DNA of 64,000 bases from Thermoproteota archaeon (GCA_042565955.1 JBHORG010000005.1:14025-78024), one strand, 5' to 3'. Shown: positions 38,481 to 56,102, counted from the stretch's first letter. Translations and numbers: made by a program. Notes: generated by a model from the sequence alone, not told the origin.

Positions 38481-38503
38481 TTAATTACTATTTATACATT
38501 TCT
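38481..38503. repeat. attL core (direct repeat copy 1)
   Basis: TTAATTACTATTTATACATTTCT. It contains the last four sense codons and the stop codon of the integrase gene (minus strand ...GAA ATG TAT AAA TAG). Confidence 0.75.
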
Positions 38504-39981
38504 AGAGGCTCATAAACAGTCTGAGTTTCTTTTGATGCTATCGTTGTTAACAGTTCTTTTTTCATCATTTCTTTTAGGGCGTTACTAAGCAGTTTTACTT
38601 CGTTCTCTTCATTAGTTGTATGTTTTTCGCATATTGTTCTATGTGGTTCCGCTAGAGCTTCTTTGACTAGGATTTTTTCTGGATCGTATCCCCAGGTTCT
38701 TATCATTTCTTTGAGCATGAATGCACGATCAATTTTTGTTCTTGACTGGATTGAAAGGTTGCTTGCTCGATATATGTTTCTTAGGAAGTCTATGCCTTTC
38801 ATTTTTATGTCTTGGTAAGTGCTGATTTTATGTCCCATCATATATTCTATGTATTCTCTGGGGGTACCTAGGGCTGTGAGTTGTGTTTTGAAGTATTTTC
38901 GTAGGCTGTGGGGACGGATGCAATAGCGTCTTTGTGGTGTAGAAGCTATTAGACCTGCTTTGGTATAAAGTCGTCTTATAACCCTGGATAATTGATCTCT
39001 TGTTAGAGGTTTTGGTTCTTTGTGGGTTTTTGTTCTGATGAGTGGTGTTGTGTCGGTGATTGTTTCTGGTGGGATTTTGCCGCTTGGGGTTCCTCTTTTG
39101 CGGAGGGTTAGGTAATCTTTCAGGAATTTTGTGGCTTCTGCTCCGATGAAGGTGTCGTAGTCGCATGTTTTTCCTTTCACTATTTCGGATTCAACGCTAA
39201 GGTGAATGGGGCGAATGTTCTGTTCTAGGTCGTGTTTTATGTGTCTGTATTCGAGTTTGCAGAGGGTTCCTACTCTAAAGCCTCCTAATGCAAGTAGGGT
39301 AATGATGACTTTTTCTCGAAGGTCTGCAAAGTTTAGTAGATTGCTGAGTTCTTCTGATGTGGGAGATCTATCTCCGTAGACAATTCTTATTCGGGGCTTC
39401 AATATTTGGGGGATTTCTATTCTGTTAGCTTTTAGGAATGTTCTCACAGCGCTTACGTGAACGTTTATAGTATTTGGCGATGAACCGGCGGCTCTTAGTT
39501 CTCCTATATAATCATCTATTGATTCTGATAACCGTCGGATGACTCTAGAATTAAGGTCACATTCTTCAGTGAGGCAACTAGCAACGAGTGTATCTGGAGT
39601 TTTTTTGACCCAGTCGATGAAGCGACTGAGACAGTATATGTAGACTTTTAGAGTACCACAACTTGAGGTTTTATGGCGCCTTAGATGAGTTGCTAATTTG
39701 AATACACTTTGATTATCAATAGAGAAACGTATTAGAGTAGGATGTGTTGAAACCAGGCTTTCTATGATATAGTTTGTTACGTCTAGGTCTCGCTTGTTAT
39801 AGATGTTAGGTATTTGGACGGTTACTGGATGTCTCAATGCTTTTCCTGTTTTGGAGGTCGTTATTGTGAGGTCTACGGAATTGTTTTTGCTTAGCAACGG
39901 TTTGAACTCTTCGTAGCGTAGTGGAAATCGTTCTATTGTCAATGTTGATTGTGTTTGGAATTTGTTGTTGGTGGTTTGCAT
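38488..39981 (-). CDS. int: tyrosine recombinase / integrase
   Basis: 497 aa. The catalytic-domain pattern is LALGGFRVGTL (Arg I), IRPHSLRKYF (HxxR) and MMGHKISTYQD (His plus the nucleophile Tyr region). The N-terminal SAM-like domain contains VSAVRTFLK. Confidence 0.85.
   Translation of the reverse strand: MQTTNNKFQTQSTLTIERFPLRYEEFKPLLSKNNSVDLTITTSKTGKALRHPVTVQIPNIYNKRDLDVTNYIIESLVSTHPTLIRFSIDNQSVFKLATHLRRHKTSSCGTLKVYIYCLSRFIDWVKKTPDTLVASCLTEECDLNSRVIRRLSESIDDYIGELRAAGSSPNTINVHVSAVRTFLKANRIEIPQILKPRIRIVYGDRSPTSEELSNLLNFADLREKVIITLLALGGFRVGTLCKLEYRHIKHDLEQNIRPIHLSVESEIVKGKTCDYDTFIGAEATKFLKDYLTLRKRGTPSGKIPPETITDTTPLIRTKTHKEPKPLTRDQLSRVIRRLYTKAGLIASTPQRRYCIRPHSLRKYFKTQLTALGTPREYIEYMMGHKISTYQDIKMKGIDFLRNIYRASNLSIQSRTKIDRAFMLKEMIRTWGYDPEKILVKEALAEPHRTICEKHTTNEENEVKLLSNALKEMMKKELLTTIASKETQTVYEPLEMYK
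38504..38518. repeat. inverted-repeat arm (AGAGGCTCATAAACA) adjacent to attL core
   Basis: Perfect reverse complement of TGTTTATGAGCCTCT at 56056..56070. Confidence 0.7.
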
Positions 39982-40056
39982 TTCTTTTCTCTCGCAGTTT
40001 TTCCATATCTATAGTAGTTATAATAAATATTTATATGTATCTATAATAGATAATCT

Positions 40057-40239
40057 ATGGTTATTCACATGCGTACTTACATCTTCACGGAACATGAAAG
40101 AAAAATTGTAAAAGAATTGATTAAAACAGGAACAGAGCTACAGGGCATCAGAATGATTTTCAGCAGAACCAGGTTATTTAGCCAACTTAAAGAAGACGTT
40201 GAACTCTATGATGCGATCCGGAAACATTTGAATAAGTAA
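40057..40239 (+). CDS. hypothetical small helical protein
   Basis: 60 aa, divergent from int. No motif was recognised. An excisionase or regulator role is only a guess from its position. Confidence 0.3.
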   Translation: MVIHMRTYIFTEHERKIVKELIKTGTELQGIRMIFSRTRLFSQLKEDVELYDAIRKHLNK

Positions 40240-40240
40240 A

Positions 40241-40477
40241 CTATCCAAGTTTTTTAACCTCAAGAATGTCGCCTTTTAATATTACCAGACCGCTTTCGGA
40301 TGGTTTGGTTTTTTGATTAGGAAGGGGGTTTTTGCTTCTATCATGTAGAATCCACATAGCCTCTTCACTCTCTTTCAGAACCCAACCAACACATTCCCGA
40401 ATAGAAGGATAGTAGAGACTAGAATCCGAGTTTCGGAAGAGAACATGATCCCGATAACAGACGTAAACCAATGTCAT
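40241..40477 (-). CDS. hypothetical protein
   Basis: 78-aa ORF with its start 3 nt after the stop of the upstream 325-aa gene on the same strand. Confidence 0.35.
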   Translation of the reverse strand: MTLVYVCYRDHVLFRNSDSSLYYPSIRECVGWVLKESEEAMWILHDRSKNPLPNQKTKPSESGLVILKGDILEVKKLG

Positions 40478-40479
40478 TA

Positions 40480-41457
40480 TTATAACAAGTATTCTTCAAT
40501 TTTCCAGCCATACTCAAGCGAATAATTATTCAATCGTTCGTAACTTTTCTGACAAATATTGCTCCAAGTTCCATTAACATACTGGATACACCAAGACAGA
40601 AGTTCGATTTTCTCACAAAAGTGGCATTTATCTTCGAGGGTTTTTTCAAGCTTTACTATCGATTTAATGTCTATAGGTACTTTCACGACTGTATGTTTTG
40701 GTTGACATTCTGCGTTGCAAACAAGTACCCCAAGAGGCAAAGATACAAAATTAGGTGGTAAGATTTTTTTCCATTTTCTAATTGTTTTTCGAGTAACGCC
40801 AAATATTTTTTCCAGTTGACGTTCTGTGAGCTTATTTCCAGAAATGCATAGTAAAACAGCAGAATAAAGACAGTTAAGTTTCTTGTTGGTTAAAGGACCA
40901 TTCTTTTTTATGAAAAATTGTGCTTTCCACTCGGCATTACGGATTGTTTCAGTACTTATGTCTGCGGCGAGAATCTCTTGCCTTTTAGTATTAATTAGAT
41001 AGTGTAATTGTTTTATACATTTTTTTAGGGGGTCTTTTTCCATTTTTCTTAACGCTCTTTTAAATTCTCGATATTTTGAGGCGGGATGAATATAGCTTCC
41101 TTCTTGTTTGGCTATTTCAGTTGAGAGAGAATCATGTGAACCCGCGAATTCACAGTAATAATCTGAAAAGTCAAAAAATCGATAACCATCCAATTTTCCA
41201 CATTTTTTGCACTTGAAAACCAGTATATCGTCCTTATCAAAAAGTGTATCATCCTCTTCGCCCTCTTTTCCACAAAAGGGACAAGTATCTAAGATTTCCT
41301 TCTGTTTCTCTATGATTTTGAGTTTTATTTTTTCGCTTTCATGACCACACTTAATACAAATTTGTTTGCCTAGCATAGGATAGTTCTCAAAATACTCAGT
41401 AGAACTACAATTCGGGCATATTCCAAACTCGATTGAGTCACTTTTCAATTTTAGCAT
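40480..41457 (-). CDS. multi-Zn-ribbon protein with a TFB/cyclin-like HTH segment (putative element-encoded transcription factor)
   Basis: 325 aa. Zn ribbons are CPNCSS...CIKCGHE and CPFCGK...CKKCGK. Mid-protein, LNCLYSAVLLCISGNKLTERQLEKIFGVTRKTIRKWKK resembles the TFIIB cyclin-repeat HTH. A further C-terminal CHFC...C pattern is present. Confidence 0.4.
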   Translation of the reverse strand: MLKLKSDSIEFGICPNCSSTEYFENYPMLGKQICIKCGHESEKIKLKIIEKQKEILDTCPFCGKEGEEDDTLFDKDDILVFKCKKCGKLDGYRFFDFSDYYCEFAGSHDSLSTEIAKQEGSYIHPASKYREFKRALRKMEKDPLKKCIKQLHYLINTKRQEILAADISTETIRNAEWKAQFFIKKNGPLTNKKLNCLYSAVLLCISGNKLTERQLEKIFGVTRKTIRKWKKILPPNFVSLPLGVLVCNAECQPKHTVVKVPIDIKSIVKLEKTLEDKCHFCEKIELLSWCIQYVNGTWSNICQKSYERLNNYSLEYGWKIEEYLL

Positions 41458-41775: not shown

Positions 41776-44190
41776 GTGCCAATTAAGAAAAGTGAGTTGT
41801 ATAGTTCTCTTTGGAAAAGCTGTGATGAATTAAGGGGAGGAATGGATGCTTCTCAGTATAAAGATTACGTCTTAGTATTGTTGTTCGTGAAGTATGTTTC
41901 AGACAGATATGCTGGAGATCCCTACAGTCTAATTGAAGTTCCTGAAGGAGGCGGTTTCTTAGATATGGTTGCCCTCAAAGGCAAAAAAGAGATAGGTGAT
42001 GAGATAAACAAAATTATCGCCAAACTTGCCGAAGCCAATGATCTTAAAGGAGTTATTGACGTTGCAGATTTCAATGATCCTGATAAGCTTGGGAGAGGAA
42101 AAGAAATGCAGGATCGTCTTTCAAACTTGGTAAGTATATTCCAAGATCCTGGATTGGACTTTAGTCAAAACAGAGCGGAAGGAGATGATCTTCTTGGAGA
42201 TGCTTATGAATATTTGATGAAACATTTTGCGACCCAATCAGGAAAAAGCAAAGGACAATTTTATACCCCTTCTGAAGTTTCAAGGATAATGGCAAAGGTA
42301 ATTGGAATTAGTTCAGCAAAAAGGCGAGATCAAACGGTATATGATCCTACTTGTGGATCAGGTTCTTTGTTATTGAAAACTGCAGCAGAAACTGAACATG
42401 GAATCACAATTTATGGTCAAGAAATGGATGTAGCAACTAGAGGTCTAGCGAAAATGAATATGATTTTGCATAATAATCCTACTGCTGAAATCTGGTTGGG
42501 AAATACTCTTGCAAGTCCTCATTTTAAAAACATAGATGGAGTCCTAAAGAGATTTGATTTTGCTGTAGCGAATCCTCCATTTTCTAATAAATCATGGAAA
42601 AATGGTTTTGATCCGAACAATGACAAATATGATCGATTTGAAGGCTTTGGGATTCCTCCGGCAAAAAATGGAGACTATGCTTTCCTTTTACATCTACTAA
42701 AATCTTTGAAAAGTAATGGAAAAGGTGCTATAATACTTCCCCATGGTGTATTGTTTAGGGGTCATGCAGAAGAAGAAATAAGAAAAAATCTCATAAACAG
42801 AGGTTATATTAAGGGGATAATTGGTCTTCCTTCAAATCTTTTCTATGGTACAAGTATTCCTGCTTGTATTATTGTTGTTGACAAAGAAAATTCAGATACT
42901 CGAAAGTCTATATTCATAATTGATGCAAGTGAAGGTTACGTTAAGGATGGAAATAAAAACAGATTAAGAGAACAGGACATTCACAAAATCGTTGATGTCT
43001 TCAATAATCAATTGGAAATTCCTAAATATTCTCGAAAGGTTCCCTTTTCTGAAATAAGCGATCTGAAAAACGATTATAACTTAAATATTCTTCGTTACAT
43101 TGATGGTTTAGAAGAAGAGGATCTCCAGGATATAGATGCTCATCTAATTGGGGGCATACCAAATAGAGACATTGAAAATTTGTCGAAATATTGGAATGTA
43201 TTTCTATCACTAAAAGATGCTTTATTTAAAACAAGTGATAGAAAAGGCTATTCAGATTTTAAAGTTAAAAAATCGGAAATTAAATCAACAATAACCGAAA
43301 ACCCGGATTTCATTTTTTTCTCGAAGAAAACAGAGAATATATTCAAGGAATGGAAAAATCATATTCTTCCTCTTTTAAAAAAGGTAAATGTGGGGTCTAA
43401 ACCTAAAGAGTTGATTTCTTATATCTCTGAGGAACTACTTTTGTCATTTTCCGAGAAAGATTTGATTGATAAATATGATGTTTACCAACGACTAATGGAA
43501 TACTGGTTTGAAACAATGCAAGATGATGTTTACTTGATCGCAATGAATGGTTGGAAAATTGAAATAAATATTCTAAAAAATAAAAAAGGAAAAAGAATTG
43601 GCTGGGATTGTGATCTAATTCCTAAAAAGATTGTGATTGAAAAGTATTTTCTAAGCAAACAAAAACAAATTGATGAACTAAATTCAACTAGAGAAAGTAT
43701 TACTCAAGAGATGCGGGACCTTGTAATAGATTATTCCATAGCGGAAGATGACTATTTTTCAGAGGTAAGAAGCAACAGCGGAAACATTACAAAGAAAGAA
43801 CTTACTCGACGAATTAGAGAAATAAAAAATGATGATGAGTTTGCTGATGAACTAAAGGTTCTACAGGAATATTTTTCCCGCATCGAAAAAGAAGGACAAA
43901 TAAAAAAAAGGATAAAAAATACCAAAACCGATCTTGATAAAAAATTGCTCTACCAGTATAGAGACCTTACAGTTGAAGAAATTAAAAATCTAGTAATCAC
44001 AGAAAAATGGGTTAAACATTTTGATAAATTAATAAATAATGAGATAAATTGTATCTCTCGAAAAATAAAGGGAAGAATAACTCAATTAGCAGTGCGATAC
44101 GAAACACCCCTCCAGCAGATATTGAATAATGCTGATGAACTATCAAAGAAAGTCGAAGTTGACTTAACAAAAATTGGTTTTAAATTTTGA
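41776..44190 (+). CDS. hsdM: Type I restriction-modification system, methyltransferase subunit (long form)
   Basis: 804 aa with a GTG start after AGGAGTAAGGA. The HsdM_N-like N-terminus is LWKSCDELRGGMDASQYKDYVLVLLFVKYVSD. The SAM motif is VYDPTCGSGSLL and the catalytic motif is VANPPFS. A ~330-aa Lys/Glu-rich C-terminal extension extends past the usual end of HsdM. Confidence 0.88.
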   Translation: MPIKKSELYSSLWKSCDELRGGMDASQYKDYVLVLLFVKYVSDRYAGDPYSLIEVPEGGGFLDMVALKGKKEIGDEINKIIAKLAEANDLKGVIDVADFNDPDKLGRGKEMQDRLSNLVSIFQDPGLDFSQNRAEGDDLLGDAYEYLMKHFATQSGKSKGQFYTPSEVSRIMAKVIGISSAKRRDQTVYDPTCGSGSLLLKTAAETEHGITIYGQEMDVATRGLAKMNMILHNNPTAEIWLGNTLASPHFKNIDGVLKRFDFAVANPPFSNKSWKNGFDPNNDKYDRFEGFGIPPAKNGDYAFLLHLLKSLKSNGKGAIILPHGVLFRGHAEEEIRKNLINRGYIKGIIGLPSNLFYGTSIPACIIVVDKENSDTRKSIFIIDASEGYVKDGNKNRLREQDIHKIVDVFNNQLEIPKYSRKVPFSEISDLKNDYNLNILRYIDGLEEEDLQDIDAHLIGGIPNRDIENLSKYWNVFLSLKDALFKTSDRKGYSDFKVKKSEIKSTITENPDFIFFSKKTENIFKEWKNHILPLLKKVNVGSKPKELISYISEELLLSFSEKDLIDKYDVYQRLMEYWFETMQDDVYLIAMNGWKIEINILKNKKGKRIGWDCDLIPKKIVIEKYFLSKQKQIDELNSTRESITQEMRDLVIDYSIAEDDYFSEVRSNSGNITKKELTRRIREIKNDDEFADELKVLQEYFSRIEKEGQIKKRIKNTKTDLDKKLLYQYRDLTVEEIKNLVITEKWVKHFDKLINNEINCISRKIKGRITQLAVRYETPLQQILNNADELSKKVEVDLTKIGFKF

Positions 44191-44193
44191 CTG

Positions 44194-45492
44194 GTGGGTA
44201 CAACAATAACCAAAGATTACATCCATACAGAAATAGGTTGCATTCCAAAAGATTGGAAGGTCACTACCTTTAATGATTTATTCACATTTCTCTCCACAGG
44301 TAGCAATTCTCGAAGCGAATTAACTACCGAGGATGGTGACGTAAATTATATTCATTATGGAGATATTCATAAAAAATGGGATTTAATCCTAGATTGTGAT
44401 AAAGCACAAATTCCTTTTGTATCATATGAAAAGATAAAGAATTTGCCTTACGTCAAAAATGGCGATTTAATAATTGCAGATGCCTCTGAAGATTATGAGG
44501 GAATTGGAACTAGTGTTGAAGTTAAGAATGTAGACGATAGAAAGATTGTATCAGGATTGCATACACTTCTTTTGAGGGGAGATAAAAATCAAATCGTAGA
44601 CGGTTATAAGGCATATTTAACTTCAATTTTTTCGGTGAAAAAAGCATTAATAACTATAGCAACAGGGATTTCAGTTTATGGTATTTCAAAGAACGCACTA
44701 AAAGATGTTAAACTTCCATTACCAGTAGAACTAAGAGAACAAATTGCTATTGTAGAAATTCTTTCAAACATAAATTCCTTAATTAACTCTTTGGATCAGC
44801 TTATTGAAAAAAAGAAGAACATCAAAAAAGGACTAGTGCAGAATATTTTTACAGGGAAGATAAGGTTAGAAAATTTTTATGAAGAATGGGTTGAACGAAA
44901 TTTTTCAGAATTATGTTGGTTTCAAGAAGGACCAGGTCTAAGAAACTGGCAATTCAGAAACGAGGGAATAAAAGTAATAAATGTGACAAACCTTGAAAAT
45001 GGATTATTAAATCTAGAGAATACGGATAGACACATTTCTTTAGAAGAATTTCATTCAATGTACCGCCATTTTGAAATTGATAAAGGTGACATAGTTGTTG
45101 CAAGTTCAGGAAACAGTTACGGTAAAGTTGCAATAGTCAGAAATGAAGATTTACCTTTAATGATGAATACGAGTGTTATCCGGTTTAAACCTCTGAAAGG
45201 ATTAGTATATGAGTTCTTGTTTCAATTTTTAAAATCAAGGAAATTCAAAACTCAAATAGATTTATTGATTACAGGCGGTGCACAGCCAAATTTTGGACCC
45301 GCACACTTGAAGAAGATAAAAATACTTGTTCCTCCAAGCGAAAAAGAACAACGCGCAGTAGGAAGATTATTGTCAGATATGGATTCTGAGATTGAAGTAA
45401 TTGAGCAAAAAAGTGAAAAATATAGACAGTTAAAAATAGGTTTGATTCAACAGCTGCTTATGGGGAGAACTCGGTTAAAATGGAAGAGCTGA
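44194..45492 (+). CDS. hsdS: Type I R-M specificity subunit
   Basis: 432 aa. Two target-recognition halves are each followed by a conserved helical spacer (LPLPVELREQIAIVEILSNINSLINSL... and VPPSEKEQRAVGRLLSDMDSEIEVIEQK...). Confidence 0.85.
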   Translation: MGTTITKDYIHTEIGCIPKDWKVTTFNDLFTFLSTGSNSRSELTTEDGDVNYIHYGDIHKKWDLILDCDKAQIPFVSYEKIKNLPYVKNGDLIIADASEDYEGIGTSVEVKNVDDRKIVSGLHTLLLRGDKNQIVDGYKAYLTSIFSVKKALITIATGISVYGISKNALKDVKLPLPVELREQIAIVEILSNINSLINSLDQLIEKKKNIKKGLVQNIFTGKIRLENFYEEWVERNFSELCWFQEGPGLRNWQFRNEGIKVINVTNLENGLLNLENTDRHISLEEFHSMYRHFEIDKGDIVVASSGNSYGKVAIVRNEDLPLMMNTSVIRFKPLKGLVYEFLFQFLKSRKFKTQIDLLITGGAQPNFGPAHLKKIKILVPPSEKEQRAVGRLLSDMDSEIEVIEQKSEKYRQLKIGLIQQLLMGRTRLKWKS

Positions 45493-48400
45493 ACGTTGGT
45501 CAACTTGAAAGATTAACTCAGGATAGAGTTGTGAAGTTATTCCAAGACAAGAAGATGGATTATTGCTATCTAGGCAACTGGGAGCAAAGAGAAAATAGCA
45601 ACGTCGAAAAAGATCTGTTAATTAAATTCCTTAAAAAACGGAACTACAGTGACATCTTAATCAAAAAAACGTTATATCAACTAAATCAAGTGGCTTCAAA
45701 CCAAAATAAAGCCCTCTATGACATAAACAAAGAAGTATACAGCTTACTCAGATATGGCATAAAAATTAAAGAAGACATCGGCGAAACAAAACAGACAGTC
45801 TGGCTTATTGATTGGAAAAACCCGAAAAACAATGATTTCTATATCGCAGAAGAAGTAACTGTATTGGGTCAACATAATAAACGGCCTGACATCGTTTTAT
45901 ATGTTAATGGGATTGCCTTTGCTGTAATTGAACTAAAAAGAAGCATAGTTTCTGTATCCGAAGGAATCAGGCAAAATCTTGATAATCAAAAAGAGATATT
46001 CATACGACAATTTTTTTCAACAGTTCAGATTGTAATTGCAGGCAACGATACAGAAGGAGTACGTTATGCCACAATAGAAACACCTGAAAAATACTATCTA
46101 AAATGGAAAGAAAATTCGCAAATAAAAAACAAGCTAGACAAAGACCTTTCCCTAATTTGCAATAAGGAACGACTTCTTGAAATAATTCACGATTTCATCG
46201 TCTTTGATAGTGGAGTAAAAAAGATTTGCAGACACAACCAATACTTCGGAGTTAAAGCAGCCCAAACCTATCTTAAAAGACGTGAAGGGGGAATAATTTG
46301 GCACACCCAAGGAAGCGGAAAAAGCCTGATAATGATTTGGTTAGCCAAATGGATACGAGAACACATTGACAATTCTCGAGTTTTAATCATAACAGACCGA
46401 AAGGAATTAGATGAACAAATAGAAGATTTCTTCAGTTCTGTAGACGAAAAAATATACCGGACAAAAAGCGGAAAAGACCTAATCGATAAACTAAACCTTG
46501 CTTTTCCATGGCTAATTTGTTCACTTATCCACAAATTTGGCACGAACACTGAACGTTACATTGACGACTATTTCAAAGACATCTTAGTAAATTTACCAAG
46601 TAACTTCAAAGCTAAAGGGGATTTGTACGTATTCGTAGATGAGTGTCATAGAACCCAATCTGGAGAGTTGCATAAAGCCATGAAAAAAATTATTCCAAAT
46701 GCAATTCTCATAGGATTCACAGGAACTCCTCTACTAAAAAGAGACAAGAAAAAAAGCATAGAAGTATTTGGAAGATATATCCACACCTACAAATACGATG
46801 AAGCAGTTTCCGACAATATCGTTTTAGACTTACAATACGAGGCGAGAGAAATCGACCAAAACATATCTTCTCCAGACAAAATAGATCAGTGGTTTGAAGC
46901 AAAAACAAGAGGATTAACTGATTATGCAAAGGCAATATTAAAAATGAAATGGGGTAATATGCAAAAAGTTCGCAGTTCACAACCAAGATTGAGTCGAATT
47001 GTCACAGACATAATGCTTGACATGGAAACAAAAAATAGACTTGGAAGCGGCAGAGGAAATGCAATGCTAGTGTCTGGAAGTATTTACCAAGCATGTCAGT
47101 TCTATGAATTATTCCAAAATAATGGTCTAAAAAAATGTGCAATAATCACTTCTTACAATCCTCACATCAGTAAAATTAAAGGAGAAAGTACCGGAGAAGA
47201 CGATGATACAGACGAAATAGAAAAATACGAAACATACCAAAAAATGCTCGACTATTACGCAACACAATATCCTGAAATAAAAACAAAAGGTTTTGATGAG
47301 GTAATAAAACAAAAATTCGTCAAAGAACCAGGACAAATGAAACTACTCATAGTAGTTGATAAGTTACTTACAGGATTTGATGCCCCACCGGCAACATACC
47401 TATACATCGATAAAAGTATGCAAGATCATGGCCTTTTCCAAGCAATATGTAGAGTGAATAGACTCGATGGAGAGGACAAAGATTATGGATTTATCGTTGA
47501 TTACAAAGACCTGTTCAATAGCTTGAGTAAAGCTGTGACAGATTATACTTCTGAAGCTTTTGAAGGCTTTGATAAAGATGATGTTGAAGGATTACTCAAA
47601 GACCGACTCCGTAAAGGAAAAACAGATCTAGATTCAGATTTAGAAACTATTAAAGCTCTATGTGAACCCGTCAAACCGCCCAAAGACACATCAGCATTTA
47701 TTGATTACTTCTGTGGTAATACTGAAAATCCTGAAGAATTAAAGAACACAGAACGAAAAAGACTCTCTCTCTACAAAATAACATCAAGACTACTCAGATC
47801 TTACACAAACATTGCCAATGAAATGAAAGAAGCAGGGTACACTCCACAAGAAACAACTAAAATCAAATCAGATGTAAGATATTACGAAAACATAAGAAGT
47901 GAAATCAAATTAGCAAGCGGTGACTACATCGACTTAAAAGCATATGAACCAGCAATGCGTCATCTCATAGACGCCTATATTGACGCAGAGGAGAGCAGAA
48001 CAGTATCGGCATTTGGCGACCTGACGCTTGTTGACTTAATTATTAATAATGGTGTAGCGGCTATAAACTCTCTTCCTACAAACATACGAGAAAACAAAAA
48101 CTCTACAGCAGAAACGATAGAAAATAACGTACGAAAACTCATAATTGAAGAAAAACCTACAAATCCAAAATACTATGAGAGAATGTCTATTCTATTGGAC
48201 GAGCTGATTCAACATCGAAAAGAACAAGCTTTAGAATATGAACAATACTTGAAACAGATCGTGGAACTCACTAAGAAAGTAAAGAATCCCGCTGTTTCAA
48301 TATCTTACCCAAGAAGCGTTAATACTAACGCAAGAAGGGCATTATATGATAACTTAGAAAATAACGAAAAACTTGCCCTAAAAGTGAATGACTACATTTT

Positions 48401-48551: not shown

Positions 48552-49278
48552 AGAAAATTTAACAAAAATTGCGGATATGGATGTACAGACTGTAAGAAAG
48601 GACATAAAAAACATGCATCTCGGAGTTTACCCCCCAAATGGGAGAGTCAGAGTTGCTGCTCCATTAGAAACAACCGATGAAAAAATCAAATTACTAGTTC
48701 TTTCAAAAATGGCTTGGATAAAAAGAAATCAGGCAAAATTCAGAAACCAAGAACGTGAAACAAGACGAGAATATGTTTCTGGAGAAAGTCATTTCTTTAT
48801 GGGAAAAAGATACTTGTTAAACGTAATTCACACGAACTTGAAACAAAAAATTGTGACAACCAGAAATTCTCACATCGACATGATTATCCGACCAAAAACA
48901 AGCCAGAAAAAAAGAGAGGAATTACTGAATACTTTTTATCGGTCAGAACTGAAAAAACAAATTCCTCCCCTTTTAGAAAAATGGGAAAAAATCACGGGAG
49001 TCAAGGTTAACGAATTTAGAATCAAAAGAATGAAAACTAAATGGGGCAGTTGCACCCCAGAACACAAAAGAATATGGTTCAATCTTGAATTGGCAAAAAA
49101 AACACTCCATTGCTTGGAATATGTTTTGGTTCATGAGCTAACTCATATTGTCGAAAAGAATCACACAGAGAAATTCAAGTTATTAATGTATTCTTTTATG
49201 CCGAAATGGGCACAATACAAAGAAGAACTTAATAGTGGCAAAATAGGTCATTTCACTTGGGACTATAAAGTTGAGTAA
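48541..49278 (+). CDS. DUF45 / YgjP-like zinc metallopeptidase-fold protein
   Basis: 245 aa. KWGSCTPEHKRIWFNLEL...LEYVLVHELTHIVEKNHTEKF carries the HExxH motif in the DUF45 pattern. Overlaps the hsdR stop by 11 nt. Confidence 0.75.
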   Translation: MVTKENLTKIADMDVQTVRKDIKNMHLGVYPPNGRVRVAAPLETTDEKIKLLVLSKMAWIKRNQAKFRNQERETRREYVSGESHFFMGKRYLLNVIHTNLKQKIVTTRNSHIDMIIRPKTSQKKREELLNTFYRSELKKQIPPLLEKWEKITGVKVNEFRIKRMKTKWGSCTPEHKRIWFNLELAKKTLHCLEYVLVHELTHIVEKNHTEKFKLLMYSFMPKWAQYKEELNSGKIGHFTWDYKVE

Positions 49279-49483: not shown

Positions 49484-50200
49484 TTACCACCAATTTCTTG
49501 TTCTTTGCACTATTTCGAATCCGCCAACATCAACCTCGAAATCTTTGCCTTCAAAGTTTGCTTTAACATGGACCCTAATTTTATATGGATAGGCTAGCGT
49601 TTGTTTTCCTTTCGGAATAAAACTGATTTTAGGTATACCATATTCTTGATTGGTCATGTCAATTAGGATAATTTGAGAGTGTCTTCGATATTCACGTATT
49701 TTCCAAAGTTTACGTTGAATTACAAGTTCATCAGATAGAATTTTAAAGCGTTGATGTAGAGTTTTGCCTTCTAATTTGGCATCAAACTCTTTTATGCGAT
49801 CCTGCTCCAACTTGTTGAAGTAATTGCGAGATAACCGAGTATAGTAAGGTTTGATTTTGTTCATATCACGAATAACAGTTCTGCGACTAATCCCCAACAT
49901 CTCAGCGATTTCACTCTGTGCATATTTCTCAGAAAGTAGCCAACAGAGTTTACGTCGTAATCGTTCTTTCTGGTATTGATTGATGGATTTGTAGTATTTT
50001 CTTATGCGACGATAAACCGCTTTTTTACATCTTTTTTCCGTTTTATCTTGTGAATTAATTAGTTTTTCGCTACTTAATTGATTGTTTTTCTTTACTTGAA
50101 AACCTTTAAAATAGCCTATTTTTCGTAAAGCGTCAATTATTTCGTTTATTTCCTGTCCATTCTTCATATCTTCAACATTAATTTTAACATTTTGTGACAT
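49484..50200 (-). CDS. HTH DNA-binding protein (sigma-70 region-4 / resolvase-like HTH)
   Basis: 238 aa. The HTH is YAQSEIAEMLGISRRTVIRDMNKIK. The rest of the protein is unassigned. Confidence 0.5.
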   Translation of the reverse strand: MSQNVKINVEDMKNGQEINEIIDALRKIGYFKGFQVKKNNQLSSEKLINSQDKTEKRCKKAVYRRIRKYYKSINQYQKERLRRKLCWLLSEKYAQSEIAEMLGISRRTVIRDMNKIKPYYTRLSRNYFNKLEQDRIKEFDAKLEGKTLHQRFKILSDELVIQRKLWKIREYRRHSQIILIDMTNQEYGIPKISFIPKGKQTLAYPYKIRVHVKANFEGKDFEVDVGGFEIVQRTRNWW

Positions 50201-50260
50201 TTTTCATCATTAACTTTCATGTTGTTTTCAAGTCTTTCGACTACTTTTCTTCACTTTTTG

Positions 50261-51133
50261 TCACAAGTTTAGACATTTGAGATCACTAACACGCCCGTTC
50301 GCTTTCAAAGCATAAACTAATTCTCTCAATTCAGTTATGAGTAACATATGTTGATCCATACCCTTCGCAAACGTTTCAAGACTGTTCTCAATTCGTTCTA
50401 ACCGATTTGGCATTCTAAGAAAATTTGCTGCTGAAACTGGATCGGTTATATCGATTTCAGCATATCCGTTACTCCGATCAATCTTCCCGGATTCTGTATC
50501 TAGCTGAAAGTTCTCAGACCACTCACCAACAATAGGAGCGTATATACCAAAATGTGGTTTACGACTTAATTTTGGTCTACCAAGATTCATAAGAAATTTC
50601 TGCTCGAGATATGAAGCCAGATTATTAGCTTCATCCCTGCTCTTGAAAAGGAGTTCATACGGATTATCACCATACAAAACATTCGTAAGTATTTCTACAC
50701 TATTCGTGTTTTTTCTCACCGTAAGACCTAATTCCTGACCTATCAGTTGCCCCCAGTTGTGTAATTCAACTCGGCGCCAATCAATCGTTATTTCGGGCTG
50801 TTGCACGATTGGATATAGCCAATAACAATTATGCAAACGAATTTTATGGGAAAAAGCTTTTTTCTCGATCTCTTCGAGAAATTTTGAACCATTCTGAGTT
50901 AAGTGAAAAAGTGTAATTAAACCTCTTGTTTTTACATGGTATCCTTCAACAGATTCTTGCTTCTCGATATAATCTAATCGTTCTAATTTCTTAATATAAT
51001 AATGAATTAAGTTCCTTTCCAACCCTAGCTGACGTGCAATCAAACTAGGATAATTTCCATCTTTTAACCCTCTTAGAATAGCACTAACAGTGTTCAAATT
51101 CTTTTGTCTAAAATTTGAACATAATTCATTCAT
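50261..51133 (-). CDS. winged-helix DNA-binding protein with unassigned C-terminal domain
   Basis: 290 aa. YPSLIARQLGLERNLIHYYIKKLERLDYIEKQ is a MarR/ArsR-like wHTH. The ~190-aa C-terminal region is unrecognised. Confidence 0.5.
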   Translation of the reverse strand: MNELCSNFRQKNLNTVSAILRGLKDGNYPSLIARQLGLERNLIHYYIKKLERLDYIEKQESVEGYHVKTRGLITLFHLTQNGSKFLEEIEKKAFSHKIRLHNCYWLYPIVQQPEITIDWRRVELHNWGQLIGQELGLTVRKNTNSVEILTNVLYGDNPYELLFKSRDEANNLASYLEQKFLMNLGRPKLSRKPHFGIYAPIVGEWSENFQLDTESGKIDRSNGYAEIDITDPVSAANFLRMPNRLERIENSLETFAKGMDQHMLLITELRELVYALKANGRVSDLKCLNL

Positions 51134-51272: not shown

Positions 51273-52544
51273 TTGTCAGGTACAGAAGGGGAAAAAGAAA
51301 GTATTCTGAAAATAATTCAATCTAGAAGGAAAACTTATGCTTGTGTTTTTGTTCAGAGTGCAATAACAAAGAAAAATGGGAAATGGCGAAATATAGTTAC
51401 AAAAATGGTTCCACTTTATTCCAAGAATGGCTTAGAATCATTGAAAAAATGGGATTATGGAAATTTTGCTATCATTGAAAGTATAATTTCAATTGAAAAA
51501 TTAGAGGATTTAGTCAGAGATATAAAGGCAAATTGTGAAGTATTTTTCTCTTTAGAGAATTACGAAATTGAAAGCCCGGCTGGATCACTTCGTTACAATT
51601 ATGAATATGACAGTGGAGATAATAAATTAAATATTCCATGGTTTTTTAAGTTATTTTCTTACTCGCCAAATATTACCGTAAGTCATAATGGTCCTTTATT
51701 CTCTCCTAACTTGCCGTTATTTCGTGATGCTTCTGATTCTATTTCTCATGTTTTAAACATTGATCGTTCAAGGTCTTACTCTAATGGTATTTTGTTTTGT
51801 TTACCAAATTATTATGCAAGGATTAGAGAGGTTAGAATAGGACCAAAAGAACTATCACTTCTAATCGAACCTAAAGCGGAAAAAATTGATAACATTGTTG
51901 CAAAATGTTCCTGTAGTAGCGGAAATTTAATGAAACAAGTTGATTTTGAAATCTCTGATTGTCGTGGTCGTGTTTTTATTGGTTTTCGTCCCGAAGCAGC
52001 ATTTTTAGGACTAATTTCGAGGCCCAAGAATGAATTATTAGATAAACGGGAGTTCCACTCGAGTTGGGGACTTCCCAAAGACGTTATTATCGATATACCA
52101 GAGTTTGAAATAAAGCAATTAATAGAGCAAGGTGAATCTAAAAATGTCGAGTTTAAAAGACGGATAGAGAGTCGCCCCGGAGATGTAAAAGAGTTTTTGG
52201 AATCAATAGTTTCGTTTGCAAACTCGGACGGAGGAGTAATCCTCTTGGGTGTAGGCGATGATACTCAAATCTGTGGATTGTTAGAAAAAGACACAGAAGC
52301 AAGAATTAATGACATTGTAAGAAGTCACTGTATACCGGAACCTAAATTCGAATACATTAAACGCCAGGTTGGAGAAAATGAGATTGCTGTCATCAAAGTG
52401 GAAGAGGGTACAGATAAGCCTTATACAATTTGGCAGAAAGGTGTTTTTATTAGGGCAGAAAGCTCGGATAGAATAGCAGAACGATATGAACTTGATGAAA
52501 TCTATAGGTCTAAAACTGAGTCAGATTCTTCGTACTCTTACTAA
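51273..52544 (+). CDS. AlbA_2 (Schlafen-type divergent AAA / putative DNA-binding) domain protein with novel N-terminal domain
   Basis: 423 aa with a TTG start. The C-terminal ~130 aa (EQGESKNVEFKRRIES...FLESIVSFANSDGGVILLGVGDD...AVIKVEEGTDKPY) matches the AlbA_2 pattern. The N-terminal ~280 aa are unassigned. Confidence 0.55.
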   Translation: MSGTEGEKESILKIIQSRRKTYACVFVQSAITKKNGKWRNIVTKMVPLYSKNGLESLKKWDYGNFAIIESIISIEKLEDLVRDIKANCEVFFSLENYEIESPAGSLRYNYEYDSGDNKLNIPWFFKLFSYSPNITVSHNGPLFSPNLPLFRDASDSISHVLNIDRSRSYSNGILFCLPNYYARIREVRIGPKELSLLIEPKAEKIDNIVAKCSCSSGNLMKQVDFEISDCRGRVFIGFRPEAAFLGLISRPKNELLDKREFHSSWGLPKDVIIDIPEFEIKQLIEQGESKNVEFKRRIESRPGDVKEFLESIVSFANSDGGVILLGVGDDTQICGLLEKDTEARINDIVRSHCIPEPKFEYIKRQVGENEIAVIKVEEGTDKPYTIWQKGVFIRAESSDRIAERYELDEIYRSKTESDSSYSY

Positions 52545-52746
52545 AACTTATTTGCCCAAAAATGTCTCGAGATTAAACAACAAATTATTTTTTGTTGCGT
52601 AAGTTCAAATCCAAACCCCGCACGATTTATCCCGAATAATCACTGTTAGATTTATTTATTCTGAAACTCCAATTAAAAAAATAATGACTTCTGAACCGCA
52701 TAGAATTTGATATTAAAAAACAAGAGCAACATTAGAGAACCAAAGT

Positions 52747-53235
52747 TCAAATTTCAATTGTATTACTTTCAAATTTTTTTCCTATTAACATGACTTTTCT
52801 GACCAATTTTTTTGGTTTTCTCTCCAGAGGTATACCAACAACATTACAAGTCTTGAAGACGTCGACTCCATTAGCTTCAGGGATTTCAAGAAGAACCAAA
52901 TTATCGTTTTTACTATTAATGAAAGTTCTAGCTTCATCTAACAATTTTTTTCTTACTGATCCTTGCCAATACAACAAACAGCGAGCCTGTTTATCGCTCC
53001 ATTTTGGATGTAATTTCTTCATTCGATTAGCTTGAGAATCGAGATCAAAAGACCAAACAACCAAATAGAAAGGTGAAACAATTAATTCGTGTAAAGTCTT
53101 AGAAAATGGAGGACATTTTGGTTTTTTTCCATAATTTGGACATCCTCGGGGATGGTTTGGGTAAGGTAACATGCACCATGGTCCCCTGGCTCGCCCGTCT
53201 AAAATTATGTTCTCTTCATTTATCTGTATAATCAT
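52747..53235 (-). CDS. Cys-rich putative metal-binding protein (DUF2284-like motif)
   Basis: 162 aa. GPWCMLPYPNHPRGCPNYGKKPKCPP resembles the C..C.NYG....CPP signature I associate with DUF2284. It is the last gene of the four-gene cassette, 20 nt after the HD gene stop. Confidence 0.5.
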   Translation of the reverse strand: MIIQINEENIILDGRARGPWCMLPYPNHPRGCPNYGKKPKCPPFSKTLHELIVSPFYLVVWSFDLDSQANRMKKLHPKWSDKQARCLLYWQGSVRKKLLDEARTFINSKNDNLVLLEIPEANGVDVFKTCNVVGIPLERKPKKLVRKVMLIGKKFESNTIEI

Positions 53236-53255
53236 TAGGTTTAACCAAACTTTAT

Positions 53256-54605
53256 TTACAAAAAGACGTTTGGTCCATTAGATTGTTTGTCCTCGAAATC
53301 TTTGAACGTTTCTATTTTGACTTTTTCTGGATTTTCATGTTCCAGATAATACTTTATTATTTTTTTACTACTGTTATCAATTGTCCAAAATTTAAGTATC
53401 AAATTTCTATGTTTTCCATCAACGGCACTTCTTAGAACATTACCCCATTTATTCTTTTTATTTTCGAAATAGTTCGCAACTTCACTGGCTACATTTTGTA
53501 TTTCAGAGTCTATAAGATGACCGTTTGAAGGGAAATAAAATCTGACTGCATAGTCAATTAATTTATTATCGAACTCATTAATTATCAGTTCTGTTTGTGC
53601 ATCACCACGTTTAGTAATGTCCACTAATCTTGGTCTCCCCCATTCTTGCATTTCATCGACAAGCGTTAGAAGAAATGGGAAATTGGTTAATTTCAGATGA
53701 TATATGTCATCACAACTATGAGCCGCAATCGCCCGAACTATTTCTCTTCTAATCATGAACTGCCTAGCATCATCAGGTTCTAGTGCTTTTAACTGATCCA
53801 TCATAAAATCCGATTCCCTAAAAAAGACTAGGTCTTTCATTAGAATAATGCTGCTTATTATTCCGTGGTTAAAATCACTCAAAGCATGCATAAATTTTTG
53901 ATAATATTTTGGTTGTAGATGAACAAAGAAGCCACCATCTGAGTTACTAATCAGGTTTGAACTCATGAAACGAAGTGCAAAATCGCTGATGTTTCCAAAT
54001 TGAAGAAAATAACTGTGTGCAAGTTCTTGAACGGATACAGCACCAAATTGCTGAAGAATCGTTCTGACGCTTTGATTTATTTTAAAGATGCCCTGTAAAG
54101 AATAACCCAAATCGTGAGTCAAAGCCATGATGCACCACATGGCTTCCTTTTCTTCCTTTGAGATTGTTACGCTATCAGATACGTCAATTTTGTCAAAACC
54201 AAATGATTCACGAACTAAATAATCTCCCAAGAGGAACACTCTGAAAATATGAATTAGATGATCTCTATAATGTTCAACAGCGCCATATAAAAGAAACTCA
54301 AATTTCTGAAATTCATTAAGAAAGTCATATAATTTCTTTGTTCCTAATGCAAGATCATCGTTATATTTCTCTCTTTTATCTTTCTTTTTTAAGTAGACAA
54401 TCGCGTCTTCAATCATGGATTTCCAAAGTAGTTTCAGAGGTTCGGCTTGTAAAGTGAGTTTAATTTCGTTTTTTATAAGTTCAAGGGCCATTTTAGAGTT
54501 TTTTCTCACAAATTTAATGTCTTCTACATTTTTTTTAAAATACTCCAAGAGTTTTCTATCTTCATTAATTGTAACGTTTTTTAGAGTTTTTTTCTCTAAA
54601 TTCAT
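53256..54605 (-). CDS. HD-domain (metal-dependent phosphohydrolase superfamily) protein
   Basis: About 449 aa from ATG 54605 (the track GTG is at 54632). The H...HD...H...D pattern comprises YRDHLIHIFRV, MALTHDLGYS, FNHGIISS and AAHSCDDIYH. The ATG overlaps the radical SAM TGA stop (ATGA). Confidence 0.65.
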   Translation of the reverse strand: MNLEKKTLKNVTINEDRKLLEYFKKNVEDIKFVRKNSKMALELIKNEIKLTLQAEPLKLLWKSMIEDAIVYLKKKDKREKYNDDLALGTKKLYDFLNEFQKFEFLLYGAVEHYRDHLIHIFRVFLLGDYLVRESFGFDKIDVSDSVTISKEEKEAMWCIMALTHDLGYSLQGIFKINQSVRTILQQFGAVSVQELAHSYFLQFGNISDFALRFMSSNLISNSDGGFFVHLQPKYYQKFMHALSDFNHGIISSIILMKDLVFFRESDFMMDQLKALEPDDARQFMIRREIVRAIAAHSCDDIYHLKLTNFPFLLTLVDEMQEWGRPRLVDITKRGDAQTELIINEFDNKLIDYAVRFYFPSNGHLIDSEIQNVASEVANYFENKKNKWGNVLRSAVDGKHRNLILKFWTIDNSSKKIIKYYLEHENPEKVKIETFKDFEDKQSNGPNVFL

Positions 54606-55624
54606 GCTTTTATTGCCTCTATAGATAAGCACAGGGGATCAGTAGATTTTACGATTGAATTCCCTCCAATAAGTCTCTGCGCGAGACATCCTCCTTTACA
54701 ATTTAAGAATGAACTACAAGCTTTACAGTCTGACATTAGAATTAAACTTTGGAATGTTCTAATTTGTGTAAAAAGCTCTGATTGTTTCCAAATCTTCGTG
54801 AGAGAACTAGTTCTTAGATTATTGTCGATATAATTTTCTGCAAGGAATTTCATCGCTTCACAAGGAACTATACGCCCATCGAAGCGAATTGTCATTCTAT
54901 TTAGACCAGCTGTGCAATCATTCTTTCTGTGAAATCCAAATGGACTAAAAGGAGTACCTATCCTAACAAATCCACCTTCATCAAAATTAGATAGTATGTT
55001 TCTTAACTCCGCAAGGTCTTGAGTTTTCAATCTTATTTTCTGGTAATTTTCTTTCCCTCTTCCTTGAGGAACAAATCTCAGAATGCTGACCTGTTTGATA
55101 GCTAGATCTTTCGATAAAGATACAACGTCAGGCAGAACTTTGTAATTTAGTGAAATGGGTACAAAATGTATTTCGGGTTGTAACCCACAAGCTTCAGCAC
55201 AAGAAATGGAAGACAATGTGTTCTCAAAACTACCTTTTACATTAGTAATCGATTCATGAATTTTACTATTTGGACCTTGTAGATTGAAAATTAGATTCGC
55301 TGACTTTAAACCTGAAAGGAATTTAAGGTCAGTTGTTCTTAGCTGTGACAACTTCCCTTCTTCAAGGACATTCCCGCAAGTATAAATTGTAAGGTGCACA
55401 CCACGGTTTGAAATATATTGACAAATTTCTTTAAGTAATGGAGACGAAAATGGTTCACCTCCAGAAATAAGAAATGATTTGGCACCTAGGGCTATAGATT
55501 CATCAATTACAGCTAACCATTCATTCAGATTTAATTCTCTTGGATGAGGTTTACCCCCATTAGAAGAACAAATCAAGCAATTTAGGGGACATTTTCTAGT
55601 GATTTCTAGAGTAATGTCAATCAT
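54602..55624 (-). CDS. radical SAM / SPASM-domain enzyme
   Basis: 340 aa. ITRKCPLNCLICSS is the CxxxCxxC motif and ISGGEPF is present. The C-terminal CTAG...FDGRIVPCE...CKACSSFLNCKGGCLAQ fits a SPASM/twitch cluster domain. The ATG overlaps the upstream gene's TGA (ATGA). Confidence 0.8.
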   Translation of the reverse strand: MIDITLEITRKCPLNCLICSSNGGKPHPRELNLNEWLAVIDESIALGAKSFLISGGEPFSSPLLKEICQYISNRGVHLTIYTCGNVLEEGKLSQLRTTDLKFLSGLKSANLIFNLQGPNSKIHESITNVKGSFENTLSSISCAEACGLQPEIHFVPISLNYKVLPDVVSLSKDLAIKQVSILRFVPQGRGKENYQKIRLKTQDLAELRNILSNFDEGGFVRIGTPFSPFGFHRKNDCTAGLNRMTIRFDGRIVPCEAMKFLAENYIDNNLRTSSLTKIWKQSELFTQIRTFQSLILMSDCKACSSFLNCKGGCLAQRLIGGNSIVKSTDPLCLSIEAIKA

Positions 55625-55809
55625 CGGATTTTGCTCCCAAATTGCTCAAGCTCTTTCTCTTCAATTTCCAATGCTTTTTTAATAAGATAAATAAGGTATT
55701 TACTTCTTGAAGTTGAACCAAGTGGATTAAATTTCTCTCTCATAGATTGAGCATTAGCCAATCTTTTAAGGAGTTCTGATTCAGCAGAGAAAGATAATTG
55801 CTTTACCAT
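55621..55809 (-). CDS. small ribbon-helix-helix-like protein (CopG/Arc type) or substrate peptide
   Basis: 62 aa from ATG 55809 (the track GTG is at 55821). MVKQLSFSAESELLKRLANAQ...SKYLIYLIKKALEIEE shows a strand-helix-helix pattern. It contains no Cys. Confidence 0.45.
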   Translation of the reverse strand: MVKQLSFSAESELLKRLANAQSMREKFNPLGSTSRSKYLIYLIKKALEIEEKELEQFGSKIR

Positions 55810-55874
55810 AATATACAACACGTTATATCATTATACAGTAGTTTGTTTTGAGATGATGTACTATAAAAGTTTTC

Positions 55875-55889
55875 ACACTAAAATAGTGT
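55875..55889. promoter_or_regulatory. inverted repeat ACACTA-aaa-TAGTGT upstream of the four-gene cassette (candidate operator)
   Basis: Perfect 6-bp arms with a 3-nt spacer, about 66 nt upstream of ATG 55809. A TATA-like TTTATAG (minus strand, 55861..55867) lies next to it. Confidence 0.25.
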
Positions 55890-56055
55890 AAATAAAATTA
55901 ATGTACATTACTATAATTCAAAGTTTAAATAAGAACCTTGTTGATAAATGTAATTTAGCAGTTTTTACTCTTTATTTACTTTCAAGGAAACTTCCCAGGA
56001 CAAATAGAAAAATAGAAGGGAGTAAAATAGGCTGTTTTTTTTAAAAAAAAGAGGT

Positions 56056-56070
56056 TGTTTATGAGCCTCT
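56056..56070. repeat. inverted-repeat arm (TGTTTATGAGCCTCT) adjacent to attR core
   Basis: Perfect reverse complement of 38504..38518. It lies 9 nt left of the attR core. Confidence 0.7.
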
Positions 56071-56079
56071 GGATGTTAG

Positions 56080-56102
56080 TTAATTACTATTTATACGTTT
56101 CT
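56080..56102. repeat. attR core (direct repeat copy 2)
   Basis: TTAATTACTATTTATACGTTTCT. It differs from copy 1 only at position 18 (G versus A). Confidence 0.75.

Follow-up and report, generated by a model that had tools for sequence, protein, structure and literature searches.

Integrative elements of archaea have mostly been sought beside tRNA genes, which are their usual targets. The cryptic integrated elements (CIEs) of Thaumarchaeota (Nitrososphaeria) have a median size of 17 kb, are bounded by repeats with a median length of 17 bp and frequently carry restriction-modification (R-M) genes; 15 of 68 are intergenic, and tandem arrays at one site have been described (Krupovic et al. 2019, PMC6563490). 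The prophage PsiM100 of Methanothermobacter wolfeii has its attachment (att) site in an AT-rich intergenic region, and transcription of the adjacent genes is reported to be unaffected (PMC8371274). The pTN3-like integrases of Thermococcales replace the 5' side of their target gene and the restored gene is driven by promoter sequence of the element (PMC8371274). For the SNJ2-type integrases of haloarchaeal pleolipoviruses a figure legend places the C-terminus of the integrase under the att alignment (PMC5861418), and the dusA-specific integrases of bacteria, a family with varied cargo, have as their one target a conserved site that is not a tRNA gene and lies where a housekeeping gene begins, at its 5' end (PMC4482086). 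There are hence precedents for non-tRNA and intergenic att sites, for tandem arrays, for integrase genes with 3' ends that overlap att (SNJ2) and for restored genes that are driven by the element (pTN3). A literature search found no account of an att core that is the promoter, with B recognition element (BRE) and TATA box, of an essential ribosomal-protein operon, none of two unrelated multi-member integrase lineages dedicated to such a promoter and none of a resulting defence-island hotspot in Bathyarchaeia. The locus described here lies in a stretch of 64,000 nucleotides from a Thermoproteota archaeon (GCA_042565955.1 JBHORG010000005.1:14025-78024; the window): the rpl44e-rps27e-eIF2alpha operon of a Ca. 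Bathyarchaeum-like archaeon very probably carries a composite site-specific insertion of two elements, A and B, in its promoter.

Three copies of a 23-bp core, all on the minus strand, mark the insertion. Copy 1 (38481-38503) reads TTAATTACTATTTATACATTTCT on the plus strand and AGAAATGTATAAATAGTAATTAA on the minus strand, copy 2 (56080-56102; TTAATTACTATTTATACGTTTCT) is identical to copy 1 at 22 of 23 positions and copy 3 (57609-57631; TGAATTACTATTTATCTGTTTCT) has three mismatches to the core. When the window was scanned for the core with up to three mismatches, four sites were found, versus 0.00 expected in shuffled sequences. The native host flank of the nudix side, GGATTCAGGTTTCTTTCC, adjoins copy 3 and not copy 2; it is identical to the flank at the empty sites of four relatives (contigs L111, L002, L006 and L007), and copy 3 carries the native attB variant AGAAACAGATAAATAGTAATT. 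At the other end, the empty sites of relatives have exactly the right flank of copy 1 (GGGGGCTGTTTTATAC...). In L111, which stems from a near-identical strain, window positions 57742 down to 57611 are joined directly to positions 38483 down to 38431 (183 of 185 nucleotides identical), with AGAAACAGATAAATAGTAATTAA as attB. Empty and occupied contigs, taken together with the host flanks, indicate that the complete insertion extends from 38504 to 57608 (19.1 kb) and consists of element A (17.6 kb) and of what is left of B, an older element unrelated to A; this remnant (1.5 kb; 56103-57608) has no integrase and is missing from the empty sites. The GC content is 0.344 for 38504-56079 versus 0.406 and 0.392 in the flanks and the tetranucleotide distance to the host is about doubled across 40-56 kb; the GC content of the remnant of element B is 0.386.

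A preliminary description of the window, made from the sequence alone, had proposed a 17.6-kb element between 23-bp direct repeats (22/23 identical) and had considered the host in the context of Asgard genomes. The repeats were recovered as described, the block is real and bounded by its integrase at one end, and its composition differs from that of the flanks. The host boundary of the insertion is at 57609-57631, though, 19.1 kb from the rpl44e side and beyond the remnant of B. Empty sites, which that description had suggested to look for, exist in L111 and in 16 species, but the sequence up to 38480 is joined to that from 57632 onwards; the expected junction of 38503 with 56103 is not the ancestral one, because A sits in tandem with the 1.5-kb remnant of B. 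The Asgard context was not borne out: all relatives of the eIF2alpha protein are Bathyarchaeia and the nearest, with 81-92% identity, are from metagenome-assembled genomes (MAGs) of Ca. Bathyarchaeum.

The gene order of these relatives is priS, a gene for a 182-aa protein, HTH165, nudix (present in most, on the opposite strand), rpl44e, rps27e, eIF2alpha and a gene for a PAC2-domain protein, with nudix or HTH165 within about 200-350 nt of rpl44e; the corresponding gap between nudix (57767) and rpl44e in the window is 19.3 kb. Sixteen of the nearest species (L002-L009, L011-L013, L015-L017, L022 and L029) have a single copy of the core, about 25 nt upstream of the rpl44e start. In the window, rpl44e (38164..38451, minus strand; Pfam Ribosomal_L44, 2.2e-24) is the first gene of the operon rpl44e-rps27e-eIF2alpha(-nop10) and its true start is probably the ATG at 38442; the exact 92-aa product encoded from this ATG was found on four short metagenome contigs. 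The site is empty in L112 and L109 as it is in L111, and in L110 a near-identical rpl44e leader is preceded by a different, B-like element arm. Thus, strains with identical rpl44e are polymorphic at this site: L111, L112 and L109 are empty, L110 has B only and the window has B and A.

In agreement with the preliminary description, the target is not a tRNA gene. The only tRNA gene in the window encodes tRNA-Pro (24017-24094, ARAGORN) and no Rfam family was found within 36-59 kb; a tRNA gene or an unannotated RNA gene as the target was therefore rejected. The target is part of a highly conserved intergenic region: the sequence AGAAA-N3-ATAAATAG-TAATTAA, with GGGGGCTGTTTTATAC and a Shine-Dalgarno-like GTGAT motif after it, is kept in species with eIF2alpha proteins of only 64-92% identity, and sequences farther upstream of the core diverge among the same species. 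AGAAA-N3-ATAAATAG stands at a fixed distance from the ATG of rpl44e in more than 24 species, GAAAAAGTATAAGAG takes this position before rpl44e in Bathyarchaeia that are less closely related, and every occupied site keeps AGAAA-N3-ATAAATAG before the operon. A purine-rich BRE followed by a TATA box is comparable to the published BRE examples CGAAA and GAAAGAA (PMC5861418). From conservation and position we infer that the att core is the BRE/TATA-like region of rpl44e, which supports the proposal of the preliminary description that the core is a promoter and that integration regenerates it; copy 1 would be the working copy before rpl44e. The same description had noted TATAAATAG also before the open reading frame (ORF) at 33070 and before nop10, and this could be reproduced: the word occurs four times in the window (33020, plus strand; 36910, 38488 and 56087, minus strand; 0.88 expected), and two of these occurrences (33020-33028 and 36910-36918) are located 42-51 nt upstream of the 33070 ORF, which encodes a 63-aa zinc-ribbon protein, and of nop10. 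At these two genes, TATAAATAG probably represents the TATA-box consensus that small genes with strong expression share locally.

The rpl44e leader (38452-38480, GGGGGCTGTTTTATAC...GTGAT) is nearly as conserved as the core, also in L001-L031. Together, GTATAAA of the core and, at a spacing of 19 nt, TTTATAC of the leader make up an inverted repeat of 7 bp that could be a regulatory feature or an integrase-binding feature.

On the integrase-proximal arm of both element types, left of the presumed crossover, there is an AGAAA motif with a TATA box. Both types thus bring their own AGAAA/TATA sequence and a complete promoter, half of it derived from the element, would therefore remain before the essential operon. 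The displaced host copy of the promoter would point into the element, with an oligo-T run 30-45 nt downstream. At this distance inside the distal end of A, there is a palindromic T8A8 run (56035..56050), a candidate for a bidirectional oligo-T terminator, and B-type P' arms have T6-T7 runs at a similar distance. It is plausible that these runs act as terminators or insulators.

The first gene of element A encodes a tyrosine integrase of 497 aa (38488..39981, minus strand; PHROG integrase, 5e-19), which a PF00589 score of 49.1 bits (7.5e-13; cut-off 27.1) places in the tyrosine recombinase superfamily. Invariant in 23 homologues are R236, K269/K271, H358-x-x-R361, H384 and Y389/Y404, with Y389 or Y404 as the candidate nucleophile. 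The stop codon (38488-38490; TAT AAA TAG) is inside the repeat, with the last five codons and the stop in the overlap, and this position in the core leaves the ORF undamaged whether the element is integrated or excised. The integrated copy has the full 497-aa ORF, colinear with its homologues, and the enzyme is thus of the non-suicidal (pNOB8) type; an SSV-type ('suicidal') integrase was rejected, as the ORF is not split. A XerA/dif chromosome-dimer resolvase (NCBIfam NF040815) was rejected too, with a score of 81 bits against a cut-off of 220. Three statements of the preliminary description are consistent with these data and with the cargo described below: the first gene encodes a tyrosine integrase, its stop codon lies in the core with no damage to the ORF in either state, and the remaining genes are accessory, with neither capsid nor replication genes recognisable by Pfam, PADLOC or PHROG.

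Among 8000 candidates scored, 473 proteins belong to the family of the A integrase at E<=1e-5. All homologues with 72-82% identity and a readable context (about 20 contigs; L081-L089 and L095-L100) end inside the core beside the rpl44e leader, and the A-type integrases are on this comparison a clade dedicated to this site. Homologues with about 50% identity are found at the ends of plasmid-like elements with archaeo-eukaryotic primase (AEP) and MCM genes at other, non-tRNA loci, and distant homologues are also present in Nitrososphaeria. Through a C-terminal tail of roughly 20 residues (...ETQTVYEPLEMYK, followed by the stop), which is found only in the rpl44e-specific clade, the ORF crosses the P arm and ends in the core. 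The DNA of this tail, ACTGTTTATGAGCCTCT, is strongly conserved and recurs inverted in the distal arm of the element: just inside the two ends of A lie the halves of a perfect 15-bp inverted repeat (17/18 in its extended form), one in the P arm (38504-38518, AGAGGCTCATAAACA on the plus strand; the DNA is conserved in all A-type elements) and the other in the P' arm (56056-56070, TGTTTATGAGCCTCT on the plus strand), and the symmetry centre of the repeat is between core positions 16 and 17. Conserved tail DNA and its inverted copy suggest a role at the DNA level, and the repeat is a candidate integrase-binding site.

Apart from the integrase, A-type elements conserve only two small ORFs, one of 60 aa (divergent) and one of 78-84 aa, and a zinc-ribbon protein of 240-327 aa. 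The cargo varies between type I R-M in the window and type I CRISPR-Cas elsewhere: in L082-L087 (for example L082 435-8010), a mobile-element-borne CRISPR-Cas system of Bathyarchaeia, with Cas3 with HD domain, Cas_GSU0053, large orphan subunits and a Cas4-Cas1 fusion, replaces the R-M cargo.

Element B belongs to a different group of elements. The rpl44e-proximal end of the remnant, AAAGACTACTAAACTGTGGA, which is the left flank of copy 2, matches the stretch between integrase stop and core in L001, L010 and L113, and L010 has a match to the distal end (GGCGATATCTCC...CCCCCTTTTTT) in its distal arm; the remnant carries a radical-SAM gene (rSAM312; 56202-57140, minus strand). Look-ups for exact matches to the rSAM312 protein, to the eIF2alpha of the window and to the A integrase yielded no recorded sequence. 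B-type elements encode a 447-aa tyrosine integrase (PF00589, 2e-19) with a stop codon about 21 nt before the core. B-type integrases with 69-91% identity adjoin the rpl44e operon in L001, L010, L113 and L114, and close homologues with 86% and 69% identity are again encoded immediately upstream of the operon. The integrases of A and B have essentially no similarity to each other (best BLASTP segment with E 0.048), and two unrelated integrase lineages are dedicated to the rpl44e core. The cargo of B-type elements comprises PolB or a D5-type primase-helicase plus R-M genes, and L010 has a tandem array with a truncated integrase.

Three further features of B-type loci were observed. L001, the closest genome (eIF2alpha 92% identical), encodes a family B DNA polymerase (2400-4079, minus strand) in an element that reaches beyond 9.4 kb, and also an integrase with an IS1-like N-terminal zinc ribbon (8060-9403, plus strand). 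In L010, genes for a cysteine synthase, a radical-SAM enzyme and a PP-loop-like protein (1348-4491) are located between HTH165 and the distal att copy, with a B-type P arm alongside; they are probably a third, integrase-less remnant in the array, parallel to the rSAM312 remnant of the window.

We propose the following order of events. A B-type element would have integrated into the native attB (...TTTCTTTCC AGAAACAGATAAATAGTAATTAA GGGGGCTG...) and later decayed to 1.5 kb; element A would then have integrated into the rpl44e-proximal hybrid site that B had left, by recombination of its circular attP, reconstructed as TGTTTATGAGCCTCTAGA-26 nt-TCCAGAGGCTCATAAACA, with the host core. Accordingly labelled, copy 1 would be the attL of A (P_A-O-B'), copy 2 a hybrid of the attR of A (right side, P'_A) and the former attL of B (left side, P_B), and copy 3 the attR of B (B-O-P'_B) with its native left flank. 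This explains the differences between the copies: copies 1 and 2 differ because copy 2 has a C at position 6, from the arm of B, and copy 1 a T, from the attP of A, and copy 3 has three mismatches because it retains the native attB variant that is also seen in L111. The uninterrupted match to the native attB is only 15 bp (ATAAATAGTAATTAA), and the 22/23 identity is in part a result of integration into the hybrid site. In A-type P' arms, TGTTTATGAGCC(T/C)CT is predicted to recur in inverted form with the same spacing.

The most likely place of strand exchange is inside ATAGTAAT, core positions 13-20. Positions 6-12 of the attL sites vary with the element (TGT, CGC, CGT and, in L098, ATAT), and they are derived from attP because they encode the last codons of the integrase. 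B-type elements deviate from attB at positions 21-22 of their distal copies, with TTCA in the window and TTTA in L010, and positions 13-20 are invariant everywhere. The variable positions on both sides bracket the putative crossover to positions 13-20, and the symmetry centre of attP, between core positions 16 and 17, is the middle of this stretch.

Some observations weigh against parts of the composite-insertion reading. The crossover window pools two unrelated integrases, which need not cut alike, and the A-type P' arm, including its copy of the inverted repeat, is known from this window alone. The AGAAA element is missing at both other TATAAATAG sites (33020 and 36910), and the promoter function of the core is derived from conservation and position only. 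At the distal end of A, the predicted fold of a terminator hairpin is no better than that of shuffled sequences (z -0.84) and a terminator scan found none, so that the T-runs as terminators or insulators have no backing from fold and scan. No attP or circular form of A was present in any collection scanned, with about 25 contigs with A-type integrases yielding only attL, and Pfam, PADLOC and PHROG recognise neither an excisionase nor a replication gene in A. These last two points, together with the clear decay of the neighbouring element B, would also suit a fixed, immobile island that arrived by site-specific integration and has kept its integrase as a relic. We consider this unlikely: the integrase ORF is intact with all conserved catalytic residues present, the 15-bp inverted repeat is perfect in both arms, the lone mismatch between the cores is due to the hybrid target and not to decay, and the site is polymorphic among strains with identical rpl44e. 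Element A is presumably still mobile.

There is very little to recommend a single 19.1-kb element that extends from copy 1 (38481-38503) to copy 3 (57609-57631), with the middle copy as an internal promoter or a chance match. The outer copies do have the true host flanks and L111 lacks the whole 19.1 kb, but one side of the middle copy is a B-type P arm common to L001, L010, L110 and L113, and its other side is the inverted-repeat partner of the integrase-proximal arm of A. In addition, the three positions that set the outer right copy apart from both others are exactly those of the native attB, L110 has the B-like arm alone beside a near-identical rpl44e leader, and L010 has the same kind of tandem array. 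Equally far-fetched is element A as the provirus of an undescribed archaeal virus with structural genes too divergent to be recognised. Virion proteins of archaeal viruses are frequently orphans, and the ORFs of 78, 60, 66, 290, 458 and 162 aa have no assigned function; against this, there is no PHROG or Pfam match to a virion protein, terminase or portal and no IMG/VR match to integrase or core, and related A-type elements exchange nearly all of their cargo, leaving an integrase and three small backbone genes that are too small for a virion module. Searches with Pfam, PADLOC and PHROG recognised no genes for replication, virion or conjugation in element A, an absence that counts as negative evidence only. 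Two elements inserted in tandem at one promoter remain the best explanation of the locus.

The zinc-ribbon backbone protein of A (325 aa; 40480..41457, minus strand) is predicted to have N-terminal TFIIB-type zinc ribbons, one cyclin-like domain with helix-turn-helix (HTH) and a C-terminal beta domain. Its 49 homologues are all within this element family. AlphaFold2 (AF2) models of the whole protein (pLDDT 80.9) and of its helical domain (pLDDT 89.0) predict two N-terminal zinc ribbons, a six-helix domain and the C-terminal beta domain, with a single cyclin-like domain. Pfam PF08271 (Zn_Ribbon_TF, TFIIB zinc-binding) matches 28 of 33 homologues, although below the gathering score (23 bits versus 29), and the ribbon profile matches the TFIIB ribbon of PDB 1pft with E 0.001. 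In Foldseek searches, the best matches of the helical domain are the core of Pyrococcus woesei transcription factor B (TFB) in complexes with TATA-binding protein (TBP), BRE and TATA (1ais_B/1d3u_B; probability 0.94-1.00 with weak E-values of 0.08-0.4), followed by human and yeast TFIIB, Brf and cyclins with E-values up to 1. By hhalign, 72 columns align to TFBc 115-186, the C-terminal cyclin repeat with the BRE-recognition HTH (26% identity, E 0.0022, weak probability of 13%; the TFBc sequence was checked against 1ais_B). There is no match to Pfam PF00382, and Pfam and PDB profile searches return the zinc ribbon only. The models and matches are suggestive of a TFB-like protein, but not conclusive. 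Archaeal mobile elements with TFIIB homologues have been described before (PMC6563490). The coincidence of a TFB-like protein with a BRE/TATA att site motivates a reading in which the basal transcription machinery joins in recombination: host TBP would bend the TATA box of the core, a role like that of IHF at lambda attP, and the TFB-like protein of the element would read AGAAA and assemble or orient the intasome, or switch the duplicated promoter copies on and off. This is speculative and we regard it as rather improbable; if true, integration and excision would be coupled to the transcriptional state of the ribosomal-protein operon.

The other genes of element A are as follows. Divergent from the integrase gene is the backbone ORF of 60 aa (40057..40239, plus strand), 72% identical to its counterpart at the same position in L082 and a candidate regulator or directionality factor. 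A relationship to MazE/AbrB, to which positional counterparts in distant elements belong, was rejected, as there is no Pfam match and the alignment is poor. The backbone protein of 78 aa (40241..40477, minus strand) shares 81% identity with the protein of L081 and 57% with that of L082 and matches no family. A type I R-M system occupies 41776..48551 on the plus strand, with hsdM (41776-44190; N6_Mtase, 5e-102, and HsdM_N), hsdS (44194-45492; two Methylase_S repeats, 7e-26) and hsdR (45480-48551; HSDR_N/SWI2_SNF2/T1R_D3) identified by Pfam; the signature domains of HsdM, HsdS and HsdR are thus all present in a single operon. It is followed by a YgjP-like metallopeptidase (48541..49278, plus strand; PF01863, 1.2e-61), a frequent partner of type I R-M. 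Two regulators with HTH or winged HTH domains (238 aa and 290 aa; 49484..51133, minus strand; HTH_11, HTH_24 and MarR_2) and a 423-aa SLFN/AlbA_2-domain protein (51273..52544, plus strand; PF04326, 3.1e-23) come next; tblastn found a homologue of the latter, 35% identical, in the B-type remnant of L010. The last four genes (52747..55821, minus strand; Pfam/NCBIfam) encode a 66-aa ORF, a radical-SAM/SPASM enzyme of 340 aa, an orphan of 458 aa and a DUF2284 protein of 162 aa. The radical-SAM/SPASM enzyme has its top NCBIfam similarity to mycofactocin and PqqE maturases, far under the cut-offs, PADLOC found no system in this cassette and merely generic radical-SAM similarity, and the 458-aa protein has no relative in Pfam, PDB or PADLOC. 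The cassette may be a new modification or defence module. The 66-aa ORF was rejected as a precursor of a ribosomally synthesised and post-translationally modified peptide, because its sequence gives no backing. PADLOC, PHROGs, NCBIfam and PDB sequence searches yielded nothing usable for the orphans of 78, 66, 290, 458 and 162 aa.

The fourth core-like site of the window (8893-8915, TTAATTATTATTTTCACGTTTCT) has three mismatches; it is embedded in overlapping ORFs, and no gene begins downstream of it. For this reason it was rejected as a further att site; the match is probably due to chance or unrelated, but may be a decayed secondary site.

If the core is what its conservation suggests, a BRE/TATA promoter of 15-23 bp is conserved enough to replace tRNA genes as a docking site within a genus and also outside it. 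Two integrase lineages with no relationship to each other have arrived at this target by convergence. The site collects defence cargo in tandem (type I, IIG and III-like R-M, CRISPR-Cas and SLFN/AlbA_2), which makes it a predictable defence-island hotspot for Bathyarchaeia MAGs, and the locus offers natural sets of attB, attP and integrase for a lineage without genetic tools. An essential operon depends on the functional half-promoter that the elements have to bring along, and the occupied sites are thus also a natural experiment on the indispensable parts of an archaeal promoter. The locus further raises the idea that factors of the TBP/TFB type help recombination.

Compared with the known systems, the PsiM100 prophage shares with this locus the archaeal host and the intergenic att site, but it is a tailed virus and its site is not described as a promoter. 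The dusA-specific integrases differ in being bacterial and in having a target within the coding sequence, and the family is not known to be related. The descriptive likeness to SNJ2 lies in the non-suicidal tyrosine integrase, the overlap of its C-terminal coding sequence with att and the small accessory ORFs beside int; SNJ2 differs in that its recombination system is encoded by a virus. The element-derived BRE/TATA half before rpl44e is analogous to the situation in pTN3-like elements, although these target the 5' half of a tRNA gene with a split SSV-type integrase, whereas the target here would be the promoter of a protein operon and the integrase remains intact. The closest match is the CIE class, into which element A, also describable as a defence island, fits: it has a tyrosine integrase, short direct repeats and R-M genes, without hallmarks of viruses, conjugation or transposases. 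The CIE survey, however, did not recognise its intergenic targets as promoters and described no integrase clade with one promoter as its site, whereas here the target is presumably a BRE/TATA region and two unrelated integrase lineages use it.

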